Virus record (IMG/VR): IMGVR_UViG_2713896899_000004 | Reading direction: 5' to 3' (one strand) | Source: a virus | Taxonomy: Duplodnaviria; Heunggongvirae; Uroviricota; Caudoviricetes | DNA length: 38,860 nt | Shown: piece after piece, positions 5,192-36,648 of the stretch | How positions within the stretch are numbered: the first letter of the stretch is position 1 | Layout: the number at the start of each line of letters is the position of its first letter | Translations under genes and position numbers: made by a program | The notes under the pieces: generated by a model | Database searches by the model: none | What the model was told of the DNA's origin: nothing | The model's input: only the letters and a program-made list of their open reading frames with translations

Positions 5192-5212
5192 AAGGGAGGG
5201 TTCTCCCTTTTG
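5192..5212 (+). terminator. Rho-independent terminator after the par operon
   Basis: Stem agggag / ctccct with loop ggtt, followed by TTTT. Confidence 0.5.
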
Positions 5213-5221
5213 GGATATTAC

Positions 5222-5962
5222 ATGAATAAAAAATTTATATCGGTTGTGGTAGCAATACTGCTAGCTATAATTGCACTGCTGTTAATTTTTGTTTTTTATT
5301 TCCTTGATGCAACTATAGCTTCTTCATTAAAGTGGGCTGTCGGTATTGTAACGGCGTCTGTTATTTCACTTACTATAAAATCAATCTCCCAAATAGCTAA
5401 ATTACAAAATTTTTTATTAAATAATCCAATTGGCTTGTTTCTCAAGAGAAATTATGAAGAAGCCGAAGAGTTTAATCGAAAAATAGCTATGGTGGTGGCT
5501 AAAGTTACTCTGAGATTTCTGATAGTGATCGGTTATCTCACTGAGGGTACAAACAATAATGAAAAAGAGAAACAGAGTGCTAAGTCTAGACAAAAGACAG
5601 TCGTGGACTTGTATCTTCTTAACGAAAAGAAAAACCTCTTAAAAGGTAAGCTGGCAGGTTTGTTCATGGTTGTTATTTCTCTGGCTTATATAACATATTC
5701 AGACTCTTCAATATGGTTTATAGCCCCGGGGGTTATTGTTTTCTTTGTGAACTCAATGAAAGAAGAGGTTTTAACTTACAGAGTTAGAAAAGGTTTTTTT
5801 GGACGAAATGTAGATGAGGCTTTGCAATTAATTAAATTTATTCATGAAAATATCGATGATATAAATAATGATGGCAATGGTGGATCAAGAAGAATTTTAA
5901 ACAACAAAGAACAAGAAGTAAAAGAGTTTGTTATGGGGTGGAACGGTGAACAAAGTGCCTGA
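5222..5962 (+). CDS. AT-rich multi-pass membrane protein (accessory cargo)
   Basis: Start set at first ATG (5222) because the track's TTG start lies in the terminator hairpin. Four to five hydrophobic helices; visibly AT-rich codon usage compared with neighbours. Confidence 0.5.
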   Translation: MNKKFISVVVAILLAIIALLLIFVFYFLDATIASSLKWAVGIVTASVISLTIKSISQIAKLQNFLLNNPIGLFLKRNYEEAEEFNRKIAMVVAKVTLRFLIVIGYLTEGTNNNEKEKQSAKSRQKTVVDLYLLNEKKNLLKGKLAGLFMVVISLAYITYSDSSIWFIAPGVIVFFVNSMKEEVLTYRVRKGFFGRNVDEALQLIKFIHENIDDINNDGNGGSRRILNNKEQEVKEFVMGWNGEQSA

Positions 5963-6365
5963 ATTAGATGAAATTACTAAAAAATTGAACAAGGCACTTG
6001 ATGTTGTCTTGCTGAAATATCCTCAGCGCACTTCATTTGGCGTCCTTGTTGGTTTTATACTGGTAGTTTTAATTCACACCTTTCGCTTTGCTTTGACAGC
6101 TTATGGTGTATTTGTGGATTGGATGCACTATTTGTTTTGTGAAGTTGTAGGGGTCTTGGTTATGAATGCAAAGTCTATGTATGAGGCATTCAACGGCACA
6201 GCACTGGACGAACGTCTGGGCACTCTTATGAATGTAATTGATGCACGTAAAGATTTATCTAAGGCTCAAAGAGATTTGTTAATCTACGAAATCTTGAAAA
6301 ATGAAATTGATTCTTTATCCGCCAATCAAGTTGAACAAGTCGGTAAAAAAATAACTGACAAGTAA
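5928..6365 (+). CDS. AT-rich membrane protein, overlaps upstream gene
   Basis: Two hydrophobic helices; start codon uncertain (TTG 5928 or GTG 5946); followed by a large palindrome. Confidence 0.4.
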   Translation: MLWGGTVNKVPELDEITKKLNKALDVVLLKYPQRTSFGVLVGFILVVLIHTFRFALTAYGVFVDWMHYLFCEVVGVLVMNAKSMYEAFNGTALDERLGTLMNVIDARKDLSKAQRDLLIYEILKNEIDSLSANQVEQVGKKITDK

Positions 6366-6370
6366 TTCAA

Positions 6371-6429
6371 GAACCTGCTTCTGTATATAAATACTAAGTT
6401 ACTTATTATTATTTATACGGAAGCAGGTC
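6371..6429. repeat. Large imperfect palindrome (about 59 bp) containing an ATAAGT-type dyad
   Basis: ctgcttc...gtataaata arms mirrored around ctaagttacttatt; possible terminator or operator. Confidence 0.5.
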
Positions 6430-6545
6430 TTTTCTCTGCTGACTTCCCAGATACATTCCCTTCCGTTTCTACTTCCAAAAACTGCCACCAATCGCTATCA
6501 TCCGCTCATCGCGATAAGTAACTAACTACCTACCAGGTGAGCCAC

Positions 6546-13167: not shown

Positions 13168-13454
13168 GCAATTTAACTTCTTGGGAATGGTGGTTGGCCA
13201 CCTATTTCTTAGCGGCCGGAGTCGCATTCGCCTTTTACGTAGGTCAGTTAGTCGTAAAACTGTTGCTGATTAAATTTGCTAGTCATAAACGTATCGATGA
13301 TGGTCTGTGGCGTCTTGGCACCCTGGTGGAAACTCGCTACGGGCAACTTAAGGAGAACGAAACCATTACTATCCAAGCGAAACGATTCACTGCCACCATC
13401 ACAAGAACACCTAGTCGTAGAGTGGCCTTGATCAAAAAAGGCACAACCGAATAA
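13164..13454 (+). CDS. Small membrane protein
   Basis: N-terminal TM helix (WWLATYFLAAGVAFAFYVGQLVV); translationally coupled to upstream ORF. Confidence 0.5.
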   Translation: MSNLTSWEWWLATYFLAAGVAFAFYVGQLVVKLLLIKFASHKRIDDGLWRLGTLVETRYGQLKENETITIQAKRFTATITRTPSRRVALIKKGTTE

Positions 13455-13460
13455 AACACA

Positions 13461-13486
13461 ATGATAAGTATTTACTTACTTATCAT
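13461..13486. promoter_or_regulatory. Perfect dyad atgataagta-N6-tacttatcat (operator- or promoter-like)
   Basis: 10-bp arms are exact reverse complements; member of a dispersed ATAAGTA/TACTTAT family. Confidence 0.5.
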
Positions 13487-14246
13487 TTACGTATAAGATG
13501 ACTTTGTTTTCGTTGAGACGCGACTGTTTGAACTTAAATACAAGTGCAAACGAAGAAGTCTATCTGGCAGTAGCCTAATAAGCCAAACACCAGCGAGGTC
13601 AGTTTCCAGCCTCGTTACCGAAATGGGACACACTGAGCGAGTGTGATTGCAGAACGCAGGATAGGGCATAGACAGCCAAACCACTATGCCCTATTCGATG
13701 AAGTAACAGAATGGGCGGTTGGTATATTTTCAACTCCATATGACTCCCGGATTCTTAGCCACTGACCGCCCATCCTGTTACGTCATTTTGTTCAATTATG
13801 TCGTTTATACTGGGTTAAAAAGCGGCGACGTAGCCCGGCTGGTATGGTTAGCCAGCACACAACGTTGAGGCCATTACATTTTTATCAATTCTAAGGTTCT
13901 ATTCACAGAGATACCGGCGAGCGTTGATATGTAACATGTTGGGCAAACATTCAATCGGAGTAGTGGCCTCAACGTTGTGAAGACAGGATAGTTGTTGTAG
14001 GTTTAACCACTGTTGCCATTGGTGCCTGTTTTCACAACAAATGATTCCATACATCACATTGTATAAATTACAAAGTAGGTGCTGTCCTCAGAAACATCAT
14101 CTACTTAAAGAATTTGCCTTCTACTATTGAGCGAAGTCGAAAGCGTCTGGCACTAACGAAAAGTGCAAGTAGCGGTGCGTTTCCTGGCAGAAACTAAACC
14201 GTCGCGATTGGCACTGTTGAGTAATAAATACTGGCAGTGCCGAATT

Positions 14247-14321
14247 GATGGTGTAGCTCAGCGGTAGAGCAGTTGGCTGTTAACCAACTGGTCGGTGGTT
14301 CGAATCCACCCACCATCGCCA
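14247..14321 (+). tRNA. tRNA-Asn (anticodon GTT)
   Basis: Hand-folded cloverleaf: 7-bp acceptor gatggtg/caccatc, anticodon loop ctGTTaa, T-loop ttcgaat, 3' CCA encoded; differs from the E. coli tRNA-Asn sequence. Confidence 0.8.
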
Positions 14322-14323
14322 AT

Positions 14324-14399
14324 GCCGGTTTAGCTCAGTTGGTAGAGCGCCTGCCTTGTAAGCAGGATGTCAGCGGTTCGAGTCCGTTAACCGGCACCA
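14324..14399 (+). tRNA. tRNA-Thr (anticodon TGT)
   Basis: Acceptor gccggtt/aaccggc, D-arm gctcagttggtagagc, anticodon loop ctTGTaa, T-loop ttcgagt, CCA encoded. Confidence 0.8.
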
Positions 14400-14623
14400 A
14401 TACAACGATAAGATCATTACGGTTAATCGTCGTTCATGTGCACAATGACTGGTCGAAAGGTAGTGATCTTACCGTTGTGGTGGATTCGCAGACTGATGCG
14501 ATAGCTTTCTTGGATGTTAGGGAAATGCGGCCGCAAATCTTCCCTTTCGCGAGCGGTGATCGTCCGTAGTCCTAATTGGCTGCACCGTATGCCGGAGATT
14601 CAGTACCGGCCACCACAACGGCC

Positions 14624-14710
14624 GGAGAGTAGGGAGCATGGTGCTCAAGCGGTCTTGAAAACCGCCCCATTGCGCAAGCGATGATGGTTCGATTCCATTA
14701 CTCTCCGCCA
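14624..14710 (+). tRNA. tRNA-Ser (anticodon TGA), class II with long variable arm
   Basis: Acceptor ggagagt/actctcc, anticodon stem-loop gcggt-ctTGAaa-accgc, long variable arm, T-loop ttcgatt, CCA encoded; D-arm slightly irregular. Confidence 0.65.
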
Positions 14711-14712
14711 GA

Positions 14713-14790
14713 CACAGCGTTGAGCGGTTTGGCCTTTTAATCACCCAGATTAAGACTCCGCTAACATAAACCAGACCGCTCAACGCTGTG
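14713..14790. repeat. Long hairpin (about 20-bp stem, 38-nt loop) immediately 3' of tRNA-Ser
   Basis: cacagcgttgagcggt (14713-14728) is the exact reverse complement of 14775-14790. Confidence 0.6.
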
Positions 14791-14864
14791 ATTGACAATT
14801 ACGGCAGACGTTCTTAACCATAGCTTGCTAACATCCTAGCAACACTTTTTTCAGCGCAAAATTC

Positions 14865-14887
14865 AAAGGGGCTTCGGCCCCTTTTTT
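14865..14887. terminator. Bidirectional rho-independent terminator
   Basis: aaaggggc-ttcg-gcccc-tttttt; closes the tRNA island on the plus strand and the minus-strand ORF 14903-16165. Confidence 0.65.
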
Positions 14888-14902
14888 GTTGAACAGTGCA
14901 AT

Positions 14903-16165
14903 TTACTTTACATAGTCGCCCAGTTTTAATATTTCGCGCTTATATTCTTTAACCATGTCACAGGATTCAATGTAAATTCGATGTAAAAGACTGCCGTTAT
15001 CTTTATTTTCATTTATCTTAATTAGTGCTAATTTATATTCATAGTCATCAAATGCCACAATTAAATGGTGGCCTGGGATTATATCTTCGTCACTCTTAAA
15101 GTATATATCTTCAAGTATGTAATCTAGTTGATTAGATTTTCTTTTCTCGATGTAATCTTCAGCCATAGCTATTACATCATTCCTGTCATTTAACCTGTTT
15201 TTTTCGGAAGGCACATCTTCGTAATGTTGCACGATTGAACAACCAATAAGGCGTGGGATGTAAACGTCAAAATGAGTAACTCTATCATTCGCGGTTTTAA
15301 GTAGTTCCTCAAAGTAGTTTCTTACATGTAAAGGCAACTTCTCAAAGTAATCATTAATTATAGGAGAACAAGGAGTTTTATAATTCATAAGAACCGACGG
15401 TACGAGCTTTGGGTGTCGAAACATCCAGTCCCTTTTAACGTCCGATGGAACATAATAACTTTTAATGATATTATCAAAATAATTTATCATTCGAGATTTG
15501 AATATTTTGTTGAATCTAAGGTTTATGAATGTATCCAGATAAGGCATATTTGAATAAGCATCATCAAAAAATATTTCATCATTGAAAAAATCATATTTAT
15601 TCAATAAACAACACAGTTTTTCCGAATTAATATGTTCACAATAATCGATTTTTAATCCAAAGATAGCAATGATCAACTTCATCTGAGGTGGGATTTTAAA
15701 AATTAATTGTGACACATACGCTCTTTTTTCCTTGAGACATTCCCCATCAATATAAAATGAACCATCCACATACTCAAATATATTAATAATATGCTTCACA
15801 TACTGTATTACCTCATGCTGTCTTACCAATGGGTAATATAGTCTATGTAACTCATCGCTGTTTAAATTAATTTTGTGTTTATCGATAATTTGTTTTGCAA
15901 GAAGACATAACTCATCATGTTGATTTAATAAGGAATCAAACCATTGTTTAAATGCACTCTTTCGCATTTCGAACAATGATTCAGTTGTTAATTGAAGGGC
16001 TGAAAAAGCTGCTTTTGCACTTTTTCTCGCTTCGTAGGCATTCCATGCTGTTGCTATAAAAGCAAATGCTGTAGCCAATGTTCCAACAGTTTGACCATTT
16101 AAAACAACCCAATCCCAAAAAATGACGGTGAGCAGTAGTATAATAATGAAAATTAAAAAAGGCAT
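14903..16165 (-). CDS. AT-rich membrane-anchored protein of unknown function (candidate defence / abortive-infection cargo)
   Basis: 420-aa ORF on the opposite strand from almost all other genes; N-terminal hydrophobic helices then a large Asn/Lys/Tyr/Phe/Ile-rich soluble domain; strongly AT-rich; own terminator. Confidence 0.55.
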   Translation of the reverse strand: MPFLIFIIILLLTVIFWDWVVLNGQTVGTLATAFAFIATAWNAYEARKSAKAAFSALQLTTESLFEMRKSAFKQWFDSLLNQHDELCLLAKQIIDKHKINLNSDELHRLYYPLVRQHEVIQYVKHIINIFEYVDGSFYIDGECLKEKRAYVSQLIFKIPPQMKLIIAIFGLKIDYCEHINSEKLCCLLNKYDFFNDEIFFDDAYSNMPYLDTFINLRFNKIFKSRMINYFDNIIKSYYVPSDVKRDWMFRHPKLVPSVLMNYKTPCSPIINDYFEKLPLHVRNYFEELLKTANDRVTHFDVYIPRLIGCSIVQHYEDVPSEKNRLNDRNDVIAMAEDYIEKRKSNQLDYILEDIYFKSDEDIIPGHHLIVAFDDYEYKLALIKINENKDNGSLLHRIYIESCDMVKEYKREILKLGDYVK

Positions 16166-16339
16166 GTATGTATTTCACTCTACTAACTATAAAATATTAG
16201 GGTAATGTTAACCAAACAATGCCTTAATTAATAGATTGATCGAGGCTTTAATAGCTTTATAATGCAGACTGCAATGATAAGTATGCACATACCTATCTTC
16301 TTTGTAAGTAAAGTTGCATATCAATTCTATGAGGTAACA

Positions 16340-16585
16340 ATGACGATCACTATCTACGGACGAGATAACTGCTCATACTGCAAACGTGCGGTCGAGCTGG
16401 CGAAGCAACTAAAGGGACATGGCTACGGTGATTATGAGTACATCGACATCACCACTGCCGGTATCGACAAGGAAAAACTTAGTGAAATTGTTGGTAAACC
16501 GGTAGAGACTATCCCCCAGGTACTGATCGATGGCCAACCGATTGGCGGATACACAGAACTGGCTGCATACGTCAGCACCCTCTGA
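16340..16585 (+). CDS. Glutaredoxin / NrdH-like redoxin
   Basis: CSYC active-site motif near the N-terminus (TIYGRDNCSYCKRA); 81 aa; start set at ATG 16340 with RBS gagg; followed by a terminator. Confidence 0.6.
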   Translation: MTITIYGRDNCSYCKRAVELAKQLKGHGYGDYEYIDITTAGIDKEKLSEIVGKPVETIPQVLIDGQPIGGYTELAAYVSTL

Positions 16586-16588
16586 TTT

Positions 16589-16614
16589 AAACGGCTCACA
16601 GGAGCCGTTTTTTA
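16589..16614 (+). terminator. Rho-independent terminator
   Basis: acggctc-acag-gagccgt followed by TTTTTT. Confidence 0.65.
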
Positions 16615-16665
16615 TTCCCACCAAACTCACTCCTGTTTCCCTTAAAATTCAAAAAACAACGTCTA

Positions 16666-16698
16666 AATGATTCCATACCTACTATGTATGGAATCATT
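16666..16698. repeat. Perfect palindrome aatgattccatac-ctactat-gtatggaatcatt upstream of integrase (candidate att or integrase-binding site)
   Basis: 13-bp arms are exact reverse complements; the core aaatgattccatac also occurs at 13012-13028 and 14037-14053. Confidence 0.5.
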
Positions 16699-16796
16699 AC
16701 TGAAAATGAGTTACTTTTACTCTTGATCCTATAAGAATCTATGCCTAATATACTGTTTACTTATACAGTGAATCGGCGTAACTCGGTGATTGTCAT

Positions 16797-17900
16797 ATGA
16801 AAAATAGCTTTGACAGAGCGCGCGCTGCGGAGAACACCTCAAAAGAGGCGATTGAGTATCTCGAAAGAGCATCTCAAATGCAGGCCGTTATGATCTCGCA
16901 GGTTAGCAATGACATGAGATTCTCGGACGCTTTCATGTTATTCACTCGCTTATCTCTGCTGATAACCAGACGTCGGCCAGAGATCGCTGTTCATTGTATT
17001 TTGATACATGTTTTGCCGCACATTGCCGATGTAAAAGTAAGTGACATTAATAGGTTCATGGTGAACCAGCTGGTCAACCCACTAATACTGGATGGCAAAA
17101 TTGTTATGGGCCGCCGCGTTTTCTCTCTGATGAAGCAGTTCCTTAGCTGGTGCGCCTTCCAGGGGATGATAGACGTGTCACCGTTAAACGATATGTCACT
17201 AAACAAAGTTGCCGGTGGCGCAAAGCCCACACCTCGCGAGCGGAAGCTGACCGACGCAGAGGTATGGGTGTTCTGGAATATATGGGACTACTTCAATGTG
17301 TGCGCTGGTACAAAATGGGCGGCCAGGCTGTGTCTTGTATCAGCAAGACGACCTGACGAAGTACTGCGGGCTAAAAAAAGTGAGTTCAATCTTAAGCGTG
17401 GAGTTTGGAATCAAGGCAAGAGAAACAAGTCAGCACGTGAGCATTCGCTGCCTTTAAGCACATTAATGCGCACATGCATTGAAGAGTTGTTCGAATACGG
17501 TAAAGACAGCCAGTGGCTCGTGCCTTCGAATAAAAAAATCGGGAAAGACCTTCCTATGTCTAAAGTGGCAATAGCCCAGGCATTACGTCGTATTCTGGAA
17601 CGACCAGAACTGATGGAGCTTGAGCCATTTACACCCCGAGATTTGCGCCGTACTGCGCGTAGTTACTTCCCAGCATTAGGCATAAGCCAGGAGGTATCAC
17701 GCAAAATCATGAACCACAGTCTTGAGGGGATAGATCGGGTATACGATCGACACGATTATATGGATGAGATGCGAGACGCCTTAGAAAGTTTCTCGACGTA
17801 CATCGCATCAATCGTAGAGCAACCGGATTTAGACGAAATTGACCACAAATTCAAGGGAGATCGTCTATCGACAGAGCTTATTCGTGTAAATTTTTCATAG
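16797..17900 (+). CDS. Tyrosine recombinase / integrase (P4-like C-terminal catalytic region)
   Basis: C-terminal FTPRDLRRTARS ... NHSLEG ... VYDRHDYMDEMR matches the Arg/His/Tyr catalytic pattern of P4-type integrases; N-terminus atypical. Confidence 0.65.
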   Translation: MKNSFDRARAAENTSKEAIEYLERASQMQAVMISQVSNDMRFSDAFMLFTRLSLLITRRRPEIAVHCILIHVLPHIADVKVSDINRFMVNQLVNPLILDGKIVMGRRVFSLMKQFLSWCAFQGMIDVSPLNDMSLNKVAGGAKPTPRERKLTDAEVWVFWNIWDYFNVCAGTKWAARLCLVSARRPDEVLRAKKSEFNLKRGVWNQGKRNKSAREHSLPLSTLMRTCIEELFEYGKDSQWLVPSNKKIGKDLPMSKVAIAQALRRILERPELMELEPFTPRDLRRTARSYFPALGISQEVSRKIMNHSLEGIDRVYDRHDYMDEMRDALESFSTYIASIVEQPDLDEIDHKFKGDRLSTELIRVNFS

Positions 17901-18281
17901 AGACTTTATGGCCTCAACAACCTTTTGTGATGCGCCTTTCTCTTTACCGAATCGCTCGTTATATGCAGCAAGAACCTGTTTTTCGTCCTCGTTAAGAGGA
18001 GCGGTGCCTTCTTTGTATAAAAATGCTGCGAGTTCAGGTTGGCGTTCTTCCAGCACCATCATCATAAGACGACTTGGCTCAATACCCAGCGCCAGCGCCA
18101 ACGGACGAACCTTATCGATAGGCAAAGGAATTTTGCCACTTTTAATTAAAGAAAGGTTGTTGGCATTTTTATAACCAATAAGTCTGGCTATTTGGGCCTG
18201 ACTCATAGGTGAGGATTCAATCAGCCCTGCGATAAAAGCAGCATAGCGACTTTCTATAAATTCAATCTTGTTGTCAGACAT
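17895..18281 (-). CDS. HTH (XRE/Cro-CI type) transcriptional regulator, candidate repressor
   Basis: N-terminal MSQAQIARLIGYKNANNLSLIKSG helix-turn-helix; divergent from downstream plus-strand genes; no protease domain (128 aa). Confidence 0.6.
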   Translation of the reverse strand: MSDNKIEFIESRYAAFIAGLIESSPMSQAQIARLIGYKNANNLSLIKSGKIPLPIDKVRPLALALGIEPSRLMMMVLEERQPELAAFLYKEGTAPLNEDEKQVLAAYNERFGKEKGASQKVVEAIKSL

Positions 18282-34898: not shown

Positions 34899-35432
34899 CA
34901 CCGCTGACAGCATACACAATCAACTGCCGCTGATAGCATATCGAGAGTCTATCTCACCGCTCACAGCATACTTTACTCGATTTTTTACCGCTGACAGCAT
35001 ACTTAAGACATTGCATGAATAATGTGTACCGGTATGGGTATAACCAGAACAAAATTACCGCTGGCAGCATACGAAGGTCTGACATATGCCATTAATTACC
35101 GCTGATAGCATATCCAAACAAAAATTCCTCAATAAAACACCGCAGACAGCATACGTTCTATCAGGGAGCAGCAGGCAATAAATGCCTTTCACTACAAGCA
35201 ATCAGCGCAATAGCAATAGAATGTTAGTGAGCGCAAACCTATATGGAATGCACTCTTCGAGGTTAGTAACCACTGGGGAGGTATGACAGAGCATTGAGTG
35301 GTGATAGATGATTTACCGCTCACAGCATACGTTCATCTCACTAGACCGCTGGTAGCATATCTTTAACCGTTCACAGCATACTTTTCAGAAAAATAGCCGC
35401 TGATAGCATACATTTCACCGCTGACAGCATAT
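34899..35432. repeat. Iteron array, about 12 copies of a 17-bp repeat (consensus yACCGCTGACAGCATAC), downstream of rep (copy-control, incA-like)
   Basis: Copies read at 34899, 34924, 34955, 34986, 35056, 35097, 35138, 35314, 35344, 35365, 35395 and 35416, in both orientations with irregular spacing. Confidence 0.8.
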
Positions 35433-36526
35433 CAAAGCAGTTTGAGACTATTGGAAAGGATCTCAATCATCTTGATATTTTCAGGCGTCAAATTCTGCGA
35501 AAGTTCAGTTATCTTGTTGATAATGTTCTGTTTAGCATCAATTTCCCCGGCTTTCTCATCTGGTTTTTTGGGTTCGATGTCTTCAGGTTTTGGCGGTGCG
35601 ACTTTAAGTTTTGGATTGCGGCTATGAATCTGGATATAGATCGACCGCCCTCGCTTAATCTCGCTGTATTCGAGATAGCCCAAATCTTGGAGAGCTTTTA
35701 AGCCGTTACGTATAGTCTGATTCTGCGAGCTTACATTCCTGCTACTCAAATTGAGTCGCGCACGCAATCGAGCAAGCGATACCGGCGCAGGCTTGGTTGG
35801 AAGACTTTCGATGAAGGTGTACAGAGCCTGTGCTGTTTCTTTGCGTGGTAGCTTATTGATAACCTTTAACTGCAAAAGAACCTTATGGTCAAAGCGATAT
35901 AGTTCGGCCAGCTTCGGTTCTGCATAGAACACCACCGTATCTTTCTGCTCGTTGTAGTCCACGCTATTGATGAGGTGCACCATCAGAAGCGAGATCTTGT
36001 TAGAGCCGTCGACGTTCTTTTCTTCATACGTTCTCTGGAAAGACAGAGTTGTACGCATGATCTTCAAAAGACTGTTTGTAAGCCGGTCGCGGAGTGTTTT
36101 GCGGATCTGTGACGATGGATAGCCACAAAACTTCGCAAATTTCGTGATGCTTAACTCGACACGACCGTTAGGTTCGCCGTATTCTGCCAGCGAACGCACA
36201 ACGCCCACCCACGTTTTGAAATCATGATCCATGTCGAGACGAGGACCGGTTATCTTGATATCGGAATAGCCTTCAGAACGGGCTACTTCGAGCTGAACAA
36301 GCTCCTTTGAAGCATCGATCTCATTTGGCTTGTTACGCTTGCTGTATTTTGTCCCCTTGAGCGTGGGCACGAACAACCCCAGCCGCATCAACGCAATTGG
36401 TTGGACTGTATTGTTGCTATTAGGGACAAGTTCCCCTGTGTACAATTCAAGGGAACCTTCTTCAAAGTTGTCGAGATTATCTTCTACTTCTTTGTTATTT
36501 TTACCTTTTTTATTTTTTGTGGACAT
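35432..36526 (-). CDS. Iteron-binding replication initiator (Rep, plasmid RepA-like)
   Basis: Gene sits between two iteron arrays. Start set at internal ATG (36526) with RBS aaagg, because the track's 40-aa N-terminal extension reads through iterons. Basic protein, Arg/Leu-rich C-terminus. Confidence 0.6.
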   Translation of the reverse strand: MSTKNKKGKNNKEVEDNLDNFEEGSLELYTGELVPNSNNTVQPIALMRLGLFVPTLKGTKYSKRNKPNEIDASKELVQLEVARSEGYSDIKITGPRLDMDHDFKTWVGVVRSLAEYGEPNGRVELSITKFAKFCGYPSSQIRKTLRDRLTNSLLKIMRTTLSFQRTYEEKNVDGSNKISLLMVHLINSVDYNEQKDTVVFYAEPKLAELYRFDHKVLLQLKVINKLPRKETAQALYTFIESLPTKPAPVSLARLRARLNLSSRNVSSQNQTIRNGLKALQDLGYLEYSEIKRGRSIYIQIHSRNPKLKVAPPKPEDIEPKKPDEKAGEIDAKQNIINKITELSQNLTPENIKMIEILSNSLKLL

Positions 36527-36545
36527 GTGGACACCTTTGTCATTC

Positions 36546-36648
36546 AACCGCTGACAGCATACTTGATTTGCCGCTGGCAGCATACCAAAAACAGTTGGCA
36601 GCATACGGCGAACCGTTGACAGACTATCAATTACCGCTGGCAGCATAC
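36546..36648. repeat. Iteron array, 4-5 copies of the same 17-bp repeat, upstream of rep (origin iterons)
   Basis: Copies at 36546, 36569, 36592 (degenerate), 36611 (degenerate) and 36632. Confidence 0.75.

Follow-up and report, generated by a model that had tools for sequence, protein, structure and literature searches.

A divergent member of the AbiC/AbiP superfamily as probable abortive-infection or exclusion cargo of an SSU5-type phage-plasmid

AbiC, an abortive infection (Abi) protein of Lactococcus lactis, has been known since the early 1990s (Durmaz et al. 1992, cited after a 2026 review of Abi systems) and lowers production of the phage major capsid protein (2026 Abi review). AbiP is a membrane-anchored protein that binds RNA in preference to single-stranded DNA and affects replication and transcription (2026 Abi review; PMC12184496); its toxicity is triggered by expression of a phage major tail protein (PMC12184496). 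The review groups the two as 'AbiC/P' and notes that their predicted structures allow no function to be assigned to either. Here we analyse a 420-amino-acid open reading frame (ORF) which starts with ATG and occupies positions 14903–16165, minus strand, of a 38,860-nucleotide (nt) viral sequence, IMG/VR record IMGVR_UViG_2713896899_000004, the whole of which we call the window. The window is an SSU5-type phage-plasmid: the DNA around the ORF is 95–97% identical to Escherichia phages Cyrano and CMS-2020a, with Salmonella phage SSU5 more distant, and a Pfam scan finds a Rep3-type initiator, a DNA ligase and a CobT-like protein among its products. The 420-residue protein is probably a single-gene abortive-infection or exclusion protein of a divergent AbiC/AbiP kind, as judged from remote homology and from the behaviour of the locus that encodes it.

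On the evidence of the family search described below, the protein appears to belong to a divergent enterobacterial clade of the AbiC/AbiP superfamily, represented in Pfam by putAbiC (PF16872, 'putative phage abortive infection protein'). Like AbiC (Prf) from the L. lactis plasmid pTN20, it is encoded by a single, plasmid-borne, AT-rich gene, and in both proteins an N-terminal hydrophobic helix pair is predicted to precede an all-helical domain without a recognisable enzymatic fold, with the putAbiC core common to the two. The likeness nevertheless extends over only ~60 residues and is seen at profile level only. Our protein is longer (420 amino acids, as against 338 for AbiC) and has an extra, variable C-terminal half; R228 and N242, invariant in AbiC, correspond to I155 and F169; and AbiC is borne by a lactococcal plasmid, whereas our protein is carried by an enterobacterial phage-plasmid, in a different host phylum. 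AbiP of L. lactis is also a membrane-anchored, single-gene system, and its PADLOC model picks up four members of our protein's family, again over this core. AbiP, with a single transmembrane helix, is a much shorter protein (its model has 223 positions), and the window protein itself has no AbiP match. AbiP and AbiC are the closest functional templates, and the trigger-dependent toxicity of AbiP is the best one at hand for a mechanism. Proteobacterial PF16872 proteins (~400–470 amino acids) are of the same length class and layout as our protein and can be aligned with it directly; they differ in keeping R155, N160/D161, N169 and E195/H196 and in passing the Pfam threshold, neither of which is true of the clade found in the SSU5-type elements.

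The first line of evidence is the homology itself. A word-indexed search returned seven homologs of the query, all unnamed. A profile of six sequences was run exhaustively against 1.84 billion cluster representatives (E ≤ 1e-3) and recovered 66, a small family, of which the 52 full-length members were aligned. PF16872 is matched by 38 of these 52 at E ≤ 0.01, and the family profile in turn recovers Proteobacterial putAbiC proteins at E-values of 1e-10 to 1e-25. The query lies below the PF16872 gathering threshold (22 bits), and its membership of putAbiC is transitive only. Scores rise away from it: P0007 reaches a sub-threshold 18.0 bits, P0008, the closest outside representative, reaches 22.0 bits, exactly the gathering threshold, and the more distant P0024, P0028, P0030, P0033 and P0036 pass at 33–45 bits. 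The PADLOC AbiC model is matched by seven members (E 1e-6 to 1e-3, the best 1.3e-6, over model positions ~106–238 only), and the AbiC and AbiP matches all cover the same central region. A plasmid-encoded protein of Pantoea agglomerans whose NCBI name is 'putative phage abortive infection protein' (WP_161569778) was found by tblastn at E = 2e-7, with 23.6% identity over query residues 17–331. The sequence-only reading of the ORF had recognised no motif in its soluble domain; this stands for direct Pfam and NCBIfam searches, but is superseded by the remote homology to putAbiC. Among the other collections, PHROGs gave only the function-unassigned family phrog_18168, and a sequence search of the PDB gave noise (E ≥ 0.13). 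A literature search under the name 'putAbiC' turned up nothing.

The second line of evidence is the way in which the gene is exchanged. Breakpoints in blastn alignments define a replaceable cargo cassette of 1.44 kb (positions 14889–16327), made up of the ORF and the 162 nt upstream of it. Homology to the backbone ends at 14888, directly after a terminator, and restarts at 16328, 12 nt ahead of the start codon of grxA. These breakpoints repeat in four comparisons (with the related loci L003, L015, L001 and L007); the alignment with Cyrano, in which unrelated genes occupy the slot, was also used. The left landmark of the slot is a set of transfer RNA (tRNA) genes, tRNA-Asn(GTT), tRNA-Thr(TGT) and tRNA-Ser(TGA), at 14247–14710 on the plus strand (ARAGORN, Rfam), and in syntenic loci the same tRNAs lie ~200 nt downstream of the homolog of our ORF. 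The right landmark is a plus-strand gene for a GrxA-type glutaredoxin (16340–16585; PF00462, E = 8.6e-11), beyond which lies a plus-strand tyrosine integrase/recombinase gene (16797–17900; PF00589). The ORF thus sits between tRNA island and integrase, as the sequence-only reading had it, with the glutaredoxin gene intervening before the integrase.

In three plasmids of E. coli and E. albertii, the flanks are near-identical to those of the window (integrase and repressor 100%, ligase 99–100%, glutaredoxin 98–99%; the identical integrase is found in L002, L003 and L015), and the alleles in the slot are 87%, 55% and 32% identical to our ORF. Synonymous divergence is 1.68 for the 55% allele and 0.05–0.18 in the flanks. 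The GC content (GC) lies between 0.32 and 0.38 in every allele of the slot gene, and elements of Klebsiella and Enterobacter have homologs of 35–38% identity in the same position and orientation. The alleles are anciently diverged, functional and exchanged by recombination, rather than products of rapid decay in place. A search for direct or inverted repeats at the cassette ends (14889 and 16327) found none; site-specific insertion of the cassette was dropped for this reason, and homologous recombination in the conserved flanks is preferred. The arrangement resembles the defence hotspots of temperate phages and satellites, such as those of P2 and P4: a fixed backbone position with sharp boundaries, at which divergent or unrelated AT-rich genes are swapped between near-identical elements. 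It differs in that a single family supplies the divergent alleles found in about a fifth of the elements, in place of a broad mix of systems, and in that the carrier is a phage-plasmid.

Homology and slot behaviour are independent of one another, and it is their agreement which supports a defence function. The proposal that the ORF is defence or abortive-infection cargo at a hotspot was made from its location and composition, and it gains from both the putAbiC matches and the swapping of alleles between flanks of 98–100% identity. We therefore somewhat favour a role for the 420-residue protein in defence or abortive infection. The cassette holds a single ORF without a partner gene, which is consistent with a single-gene system, and the gene would be an unannotated, divergent branch of a known and mechanistically unsolved Abi family, found where such genes are expected.

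The spread of the gene beyond the window was examined by tblastn. Homologs were found in 134 PLSDB plasmids, mostly non-mobilizable and ~105–115 kb in size, from Escherichia, Klebsiella, Enterobacter, Salmonella, Citrobacter and Pantoea; compared with the ~650 plasmids that have an SSU5-type ligase, this is about a fifth. The same protein gave no match at E ≤ 1e-5 in 50,697 phage genomes, SSU5-like elements included. The slot gene is thus present in the plasmid collection and absent from the phage collection searched, and PHROGs, as mentioned above, has a near-identical family. Seven plasmids of E. albertii (H51–H57; locus L002), of ~62–64 kb, carry the ligase–tRNA–cargo–grxA–integrase–CobT segment with the 87%-identical allele. 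At about half the normal size of SSU5-type elements, they may be deleted, non-inducible derivatives. E. coli F-type plasmids (L007:7985–9787, and also L008 and L009) carry an allele of 31% identity, P0008. Directly after it in L007 there are 472 nt which are 99.2% identical to window positions 14417–14888 and contain tRNA-Ser, spacer and terminator. The leading region of these plasmids encodes PsiA, PsiB, SSB and Hok, and the P0008 block is surrounded by copies of the insertion sequences IS1, IS91 and IS110 and by toxin–antitoxin genes. From these alignments, a fragment of a phage-plasmid with its cargo slot has evidently been captured by conjugative F-type plasmids, which shows that such cargo moves between phage-plasmids and plasmids.

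The signals at the two ends of the cassette were also examined. A GC-rich hairpin with a T-run at 14865–14884, 18 nt beyond the stop codon of the ORF, had been taken to be the ORF's own terminator. This does not hold, since the hairpin scores on the plus strand and is conserved in Cyrano, where the ORF is absent; the F-plasmid fragment L007 has it as well. It is therefore assigned to the backbone, as the terminator of the tRNA operon, outside the cargo. It may also stop the converging transcript of the ORF, and would at best be bidirectional. At the other end, the AT-rich divergent intergenic region within the cassette (16166–16327) contains a sigma-70-like promoter, TTGATC-16-TATAAT, at 16236–16263 on the plus strand, directed at grxA.

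The predicted architecture of the protein is that of the AbiC/AbiP group, in which one or more predicted N-terminal transmembrane helices precede an extra-membrane domain that is helical and resembles no known fold. An AlphaFold2 model built from the 52-sequence alignment has a mean predicted local distance difference test score (pLDDT) of 87.1 and a predicted template modelling score (pTM) of 0.75; it replaces an earlier run with six sequences (pLDDT 60.6). The model consists of two short N-terminal helices, a very long helix at residues 24–96, and then a domain made up mostly of helices, with three short strands. Foldseek comparison with the PDB and with viral models returned nothing below E = 0.2. 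Residues 2–22 (16100–16162, minus strand) form a strongly hydrophobic helix, with Kyte–Doolittle values of 1.85–2.83 in 19-residue windows, and are predicted to be the first transmembrane segment. Residues 27–56 (15998–16087, minus strand) form a second helix rich in Ala, Thr and Ser, a putative second transmembrane segment, together with the basic juxtamembrane motif ATAWNAYEARKSAKAA. The core homologous to the putAbiC domain, as placed by the PF16872 matches of homologs and by hhalign, comprises residues 111–200 (15566–15835, minus strand), and in residues 201–420 (14906–15565, minus strand), the C-terminal half, the model shows helices and a small element of three strands. Of the hydrophobic helix pair claimed for the N-terminus, the first member is thus strong (values up to 2.8), whereas the Ala/Thr-rich residues 27–44 are only moderately hydrophobic; by analogy with AbiC, a two-helix hairpin is plausible. 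The basic residues R47, K48 and K51 follow helix 2, and the loop between the helices is short and acidic. Under the positive-inside rule, these features predict a hairpin with both termini inside the cell, and with it a cytoplasmic location for the helical domain of ~360 residues.

Conservation is very uneven along the protein. Helix 2 and the ATAWNAYEARKSAKAA collar are the best-conserved segment, being 70–73% identical in alleles which are 32–38% identical overall, and no other segment carries as much information in the 52-sequence alignment (2.42 bits); an invariant block is visible there. The putAbiC core is 41–44% identical among the same alleles. The C-terminal half is the most variable part, with 15–31% identity between alleles and 1.08–1.10 bits, and distant family members align to query residues ~1–300 only; it is a candidate for the specificity or sensor region. 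Membrane anchors are usually poorly conserved, and helix 2 departs from this. It also carries small residues every three to four positions (A35, A38/T39, A43, A46, S49/A50 and A53), a spacing typical of tight helix–helix packing. On account of both its conservation and this spacing, we propose that the N-terminal module may be the effector or oligomerisation element.

Taken with what is known of AbiP, these features suggest how the protein might act. During plasmid carriage of the element, it would reside in the inner membrane. The hypervariable C-terminal half would recognise a product of a superinfecting phage, and recognition would activate the conserved N-terminal module. This module might then oligomerise by the small-residue face of helix 2 and so disturb the membrane, or it might have phage RNA as its target, an action that has been suggested for AbiP. 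Infection would be aborted, and clonal hosts, together with the phage-plasmid that they carry, would be protected. A more specific version, which we put forward only tentatively and think unlikely, is that the clade in the SSU5 slot is a functionally distinct, modular membrane immune sensor, in which the near-invariant Ala/Thr/Ser face of helix 2 and the basic ATAWNAYEARKSAKAA collar would make up an oligomeric membrane-disrupting effector and the hypervariable C-terminal half an exchangeable receptor for phage structural proteins. If this were true, phage-plasmids would retarget immunity by swapping whole alleles, and the loss of the polar putAbiC signature residues would mean an action unlike that of lactococcal AbiC or AbiP.

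Several points weigh against an abortive-infection or defence protein of the AbiC/AbiP kind. The first is that the query protein on its own has no match in Pfam or NCBIfam, and none to PF16872 or to the PADLOC AbiC and AbiP models even at E ≤ 1. The second concerns AbiC itself. A true lactococcal AbiC, located through the literature on p275A (L012:7554–8570, WP_081144410), matches the PADLOC AbiC model PDLC02343 over positions 1–306 at E = 4.3e-133, and 17 lactococcal homologs of it were aligned for profile comparison. When the 52-sequence family was compared with this alignment by hhalign, the match was weak (E = 1.2e-4, probability 55%, 61 columns); it pairs query residues 117–177 with AbiC residues 190–250 and aligns an invariant Tyr. 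The same comparison with the close subfamily of six sequences lacked the core match, and a tblastn search of plasmids with the putAbiC-positive P0033 did not reach Lactococcus. The relation to characterised lactococcal AbiC is thus remote, confined to the Pfam core and supported mainly via intermediates. Thirdly, of the conserved core of the domain (an aromatic Tyr, an LR motif, an IxxN motif and FFEH), the putAbiC consensus residues R155, N160, D161, N169, E195 and H196 are I, P, Q, F, N and D in the query, and across the SSU5-slot clade R155 is replaced by I or S, N169 by F, L or Y, and H196 by D or N. The polar residues altered in this clade are the consensus of the wider family and are invariant in lactococcal AbiC. 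Their replacement is the reason that the Pfam model misses the query, and the clade may work differently from AbiC. Retained are the family-invariant Y122, F193 and F194, as well as an LLxQH motif at residues 79–83.

Further points of the same kind come from the gene, the membrane segment and the literature. A scan of the minus strand between 16166 and 16340 found no consensus promoter for the ORF itself. The hydrophobicity of residues 27–44 is moderate, with a Kyte–Doolittle value of ~1.15 when summed by hand and no 19-residue window above 1.6. The mechanistic steps past membrane anchoring are inference only, AbiC itself having no established mechanism. Membership of the family is no guarantee of a phenotype, since resistance to the phages tried was not seen with a lactococcal AbiC-like protein that shares 38% identity with AbiC (PMC11381338). 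Finally, AbiC is not among the systems listed in a survey that ran defence finders on SSU5-type elements, which suggests that the clade is being missed.

Among other functions, we considered superinfection exclusion, or another non-abortive membrane activity, by which the protein would serve the phage-plasmid by stopping competing phages or plasmids at the inner membrane, either as their DNA enters or at an early step, while the host survives. A membrane-anchored product, encoded on the strand opposite to the lytic genes and next to a predicted repressor and an integrase, would suit such a function, as would the finding that the best-conserved part is the membrane and juxtamembrane segment, which could touch a conserved component of the host membrane; and allele diversity at one slot suits any arms-race function. 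However, the sole homology signal is to AbiC and AbiP, both of which are reported to act after DNA entry, and a predicted cytoplasmic domain of ~360 residues exceeds the size needed for an entry block. We regard exclusion without abortion as unlikely.

The gene could also be a plasmid-competition or addiction module, whose product, a membrane toxin or a protein with a bacteriocin-related function, would stabilise the element or harm cells without it. The surroundings of the gene in relatives speak for this: the distant, putAbiC-positive P0033 (L011:2895–6175, on a metagenomic contig) adjoins a colicin gene (ColA_N/Colicin) and a microcin-family gene, the F-type plasmid alleles lie among toxin–antitoxin genes and insertion sequences, and the adjacent slot in relatives holds genes for the YafO toxin or colicin-E1 immunity. 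Against it, the 1.44-kb cassette has no partner ORF for an antitoxin or immunity protein, and neither a signal peptide nor a lysis gene is present. The homology of the family points to Abi proteins, not to bacteriocins, and carriage by about a fifth of SSU5-type plasmids means that the gene is dispensable for maintenance. Altogether, an addiction function seems to us quite improbable.

A more basic question is whether the ORF is functional at all, or is a long reading frame that arose by chance in AT-rich foreign DNA, or what is left of a decaying gene. Its GC is low, as had been noted from the sequence and as a composition check bears out: it is 0.318 (0.287 at third codon positions) compared with 0.451 in the remaining window, and the ORF is the lowest-GC 1263-nt stretch of the window (z = −3.8). 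Every database entry is named 'hypothetical protein', and, as noted, a consensus promoter was not found. Nevertheless, stop codons are abundant in AT-rich DNA, in which 420 open codons would be unexpected, and full-length homologs, which span 32–96% identity as a whole, are retained at 32–55%. The ratio of non-synonymous to synonymous divergence is 0.32 against the L002 allele and 0.19 against the L003 allele (synonymous sites being saturated), the model from the family alignment is confident (pLDDT 87), and the identical protein occurs on at least 20 contigs, of which eight measure 50–200 kb and at least two of these ~110 kb. The ORF is a real, functional gene under purifying selection, and the spurious-ORF reading is effectively excluded.

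Least probable of all, to the point of being negligible, is a relation to the Septu nuclease PtuB: the query does match PADLOC PtuB1 (E = 5.2e-4, 17.7 bits, residues 30–128), but it is alone among the 52 members in doing so, the match falls on hydrophobic and stalk helices rather than on a catalytic domain, neither an HNH nor any other nuclease domain turns up in a Pfam scan, and no PtuA-like ATPase is adjacent. The Abi_C/AbiJ HEPN RNases (PF14355) were likewise rejected as relatives, the query having no Pfam match and no Abi_C or HEPN family being among the five Pfam families of the 52 members; no scan for the R-x(4-6)-H motif was made. Papers on 'Abi_C' (SadR, Taranis) were set aside, their subject being the unrelated AbiJ/HEPN domain.

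The probable abortive-infection or exclusion gene described here lies in a region with several other features of note. As the sequence-only reading had stated, it is one of only three minus-strand genes in the window, counting non-nested ORFs of at least 100 amino acids (nested ORFs lying inside longer plus-strand ORFs). The others are at 17895–18281, which related records annotate as a helix-turn-helix regulator or putative repressor and which has no Pfam match here, and at 35432–36646, the Rep3-type initiator. Window positions 5501–6500 are also AT-rich (GC 0.34–0.37) and have two ORFs without a Pfam match (5210–5962 and 5928–6365); this may be another cargo position. A second variable slot, empty in the window, lies between grxA and the integrase gene (16586–16648). 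In contigs carrying the identical ORF (L017–L019), the slot beside grxA holds a YafO-family toxin gene and a gene for a 202-amino-acid protein; in Cyrano, the slot between grxA and the integrase gene has a 555-nt hypothetical gene; and in relatives from Klebsiella and Enterobacter, combinations of colicin-E1 immunity, YafO, phoH and Gp49-family genes occur around grxA.

The tRNA-Asn/Thr/Ser module (window 14243–14733) shares ~94% identity with the cluster of tRNAs in P7 and D6, two P1-like phage-plasmids, a likeness that indicates exchange between the P1/D6 and SSU5 groups of phage-plasmids. The tRNA content differs among relatives, with an extra tRNA-Tyr in L002 and L003 and tRNA-Thr or tRNA-Ser missing from the Klebsiella and Enterobacter loci. 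In Rfam, tRNA-Ser(TGA) at 14623–14707 also scored as tRNA-Sec (47.1 bits against a threshold of 47). This was rejected, as ARAGORN calls tRNA-Ser and the anticodon is TGA, not TCA, and the match is put down, as an artefact, to the long variable arm of tRNA-Ser. A 224-nt spacer (14400–14623) separates tRNA-Thr from tRNA-Ser; Cyrano lacks it, and its two tRNAs are 8 nt apart. Identity to the spacer is 99.6% in CMS-2020a and, across 162 nt, 97.5% in P7 and D6; several Klebsiella phages of ~46–50 kb have a version that is ~75% similar. As RNA it folds somewhat better than shuffled sequences (z = −2.3), and an Rfam search of window positions 13400–16900 matched the tRNAs alone, with no family for the spacer. 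Possible identities for the spacer are a small RNA, a degenerate tRNA and a mobile insert.

If the clade is what its homology and its slot suggest, it would bring the AbiC/AbiP problem from Lactococcus into E. coli, the most tractable phage–host system. The natural series of alleles, at 98%, 87%, 55% and 32% identity on near-identical backbones, would serve as ready-made swaps with which to map specificity in the C-terminal half and the effector in helix 2 and the core. Because these genes are labelled 'hypothetical protein' and fall below the Pfam and PADLOC thresholds, defence inventories of the clinically relevant SSU5-type phage-plasmids are probably undercounts.

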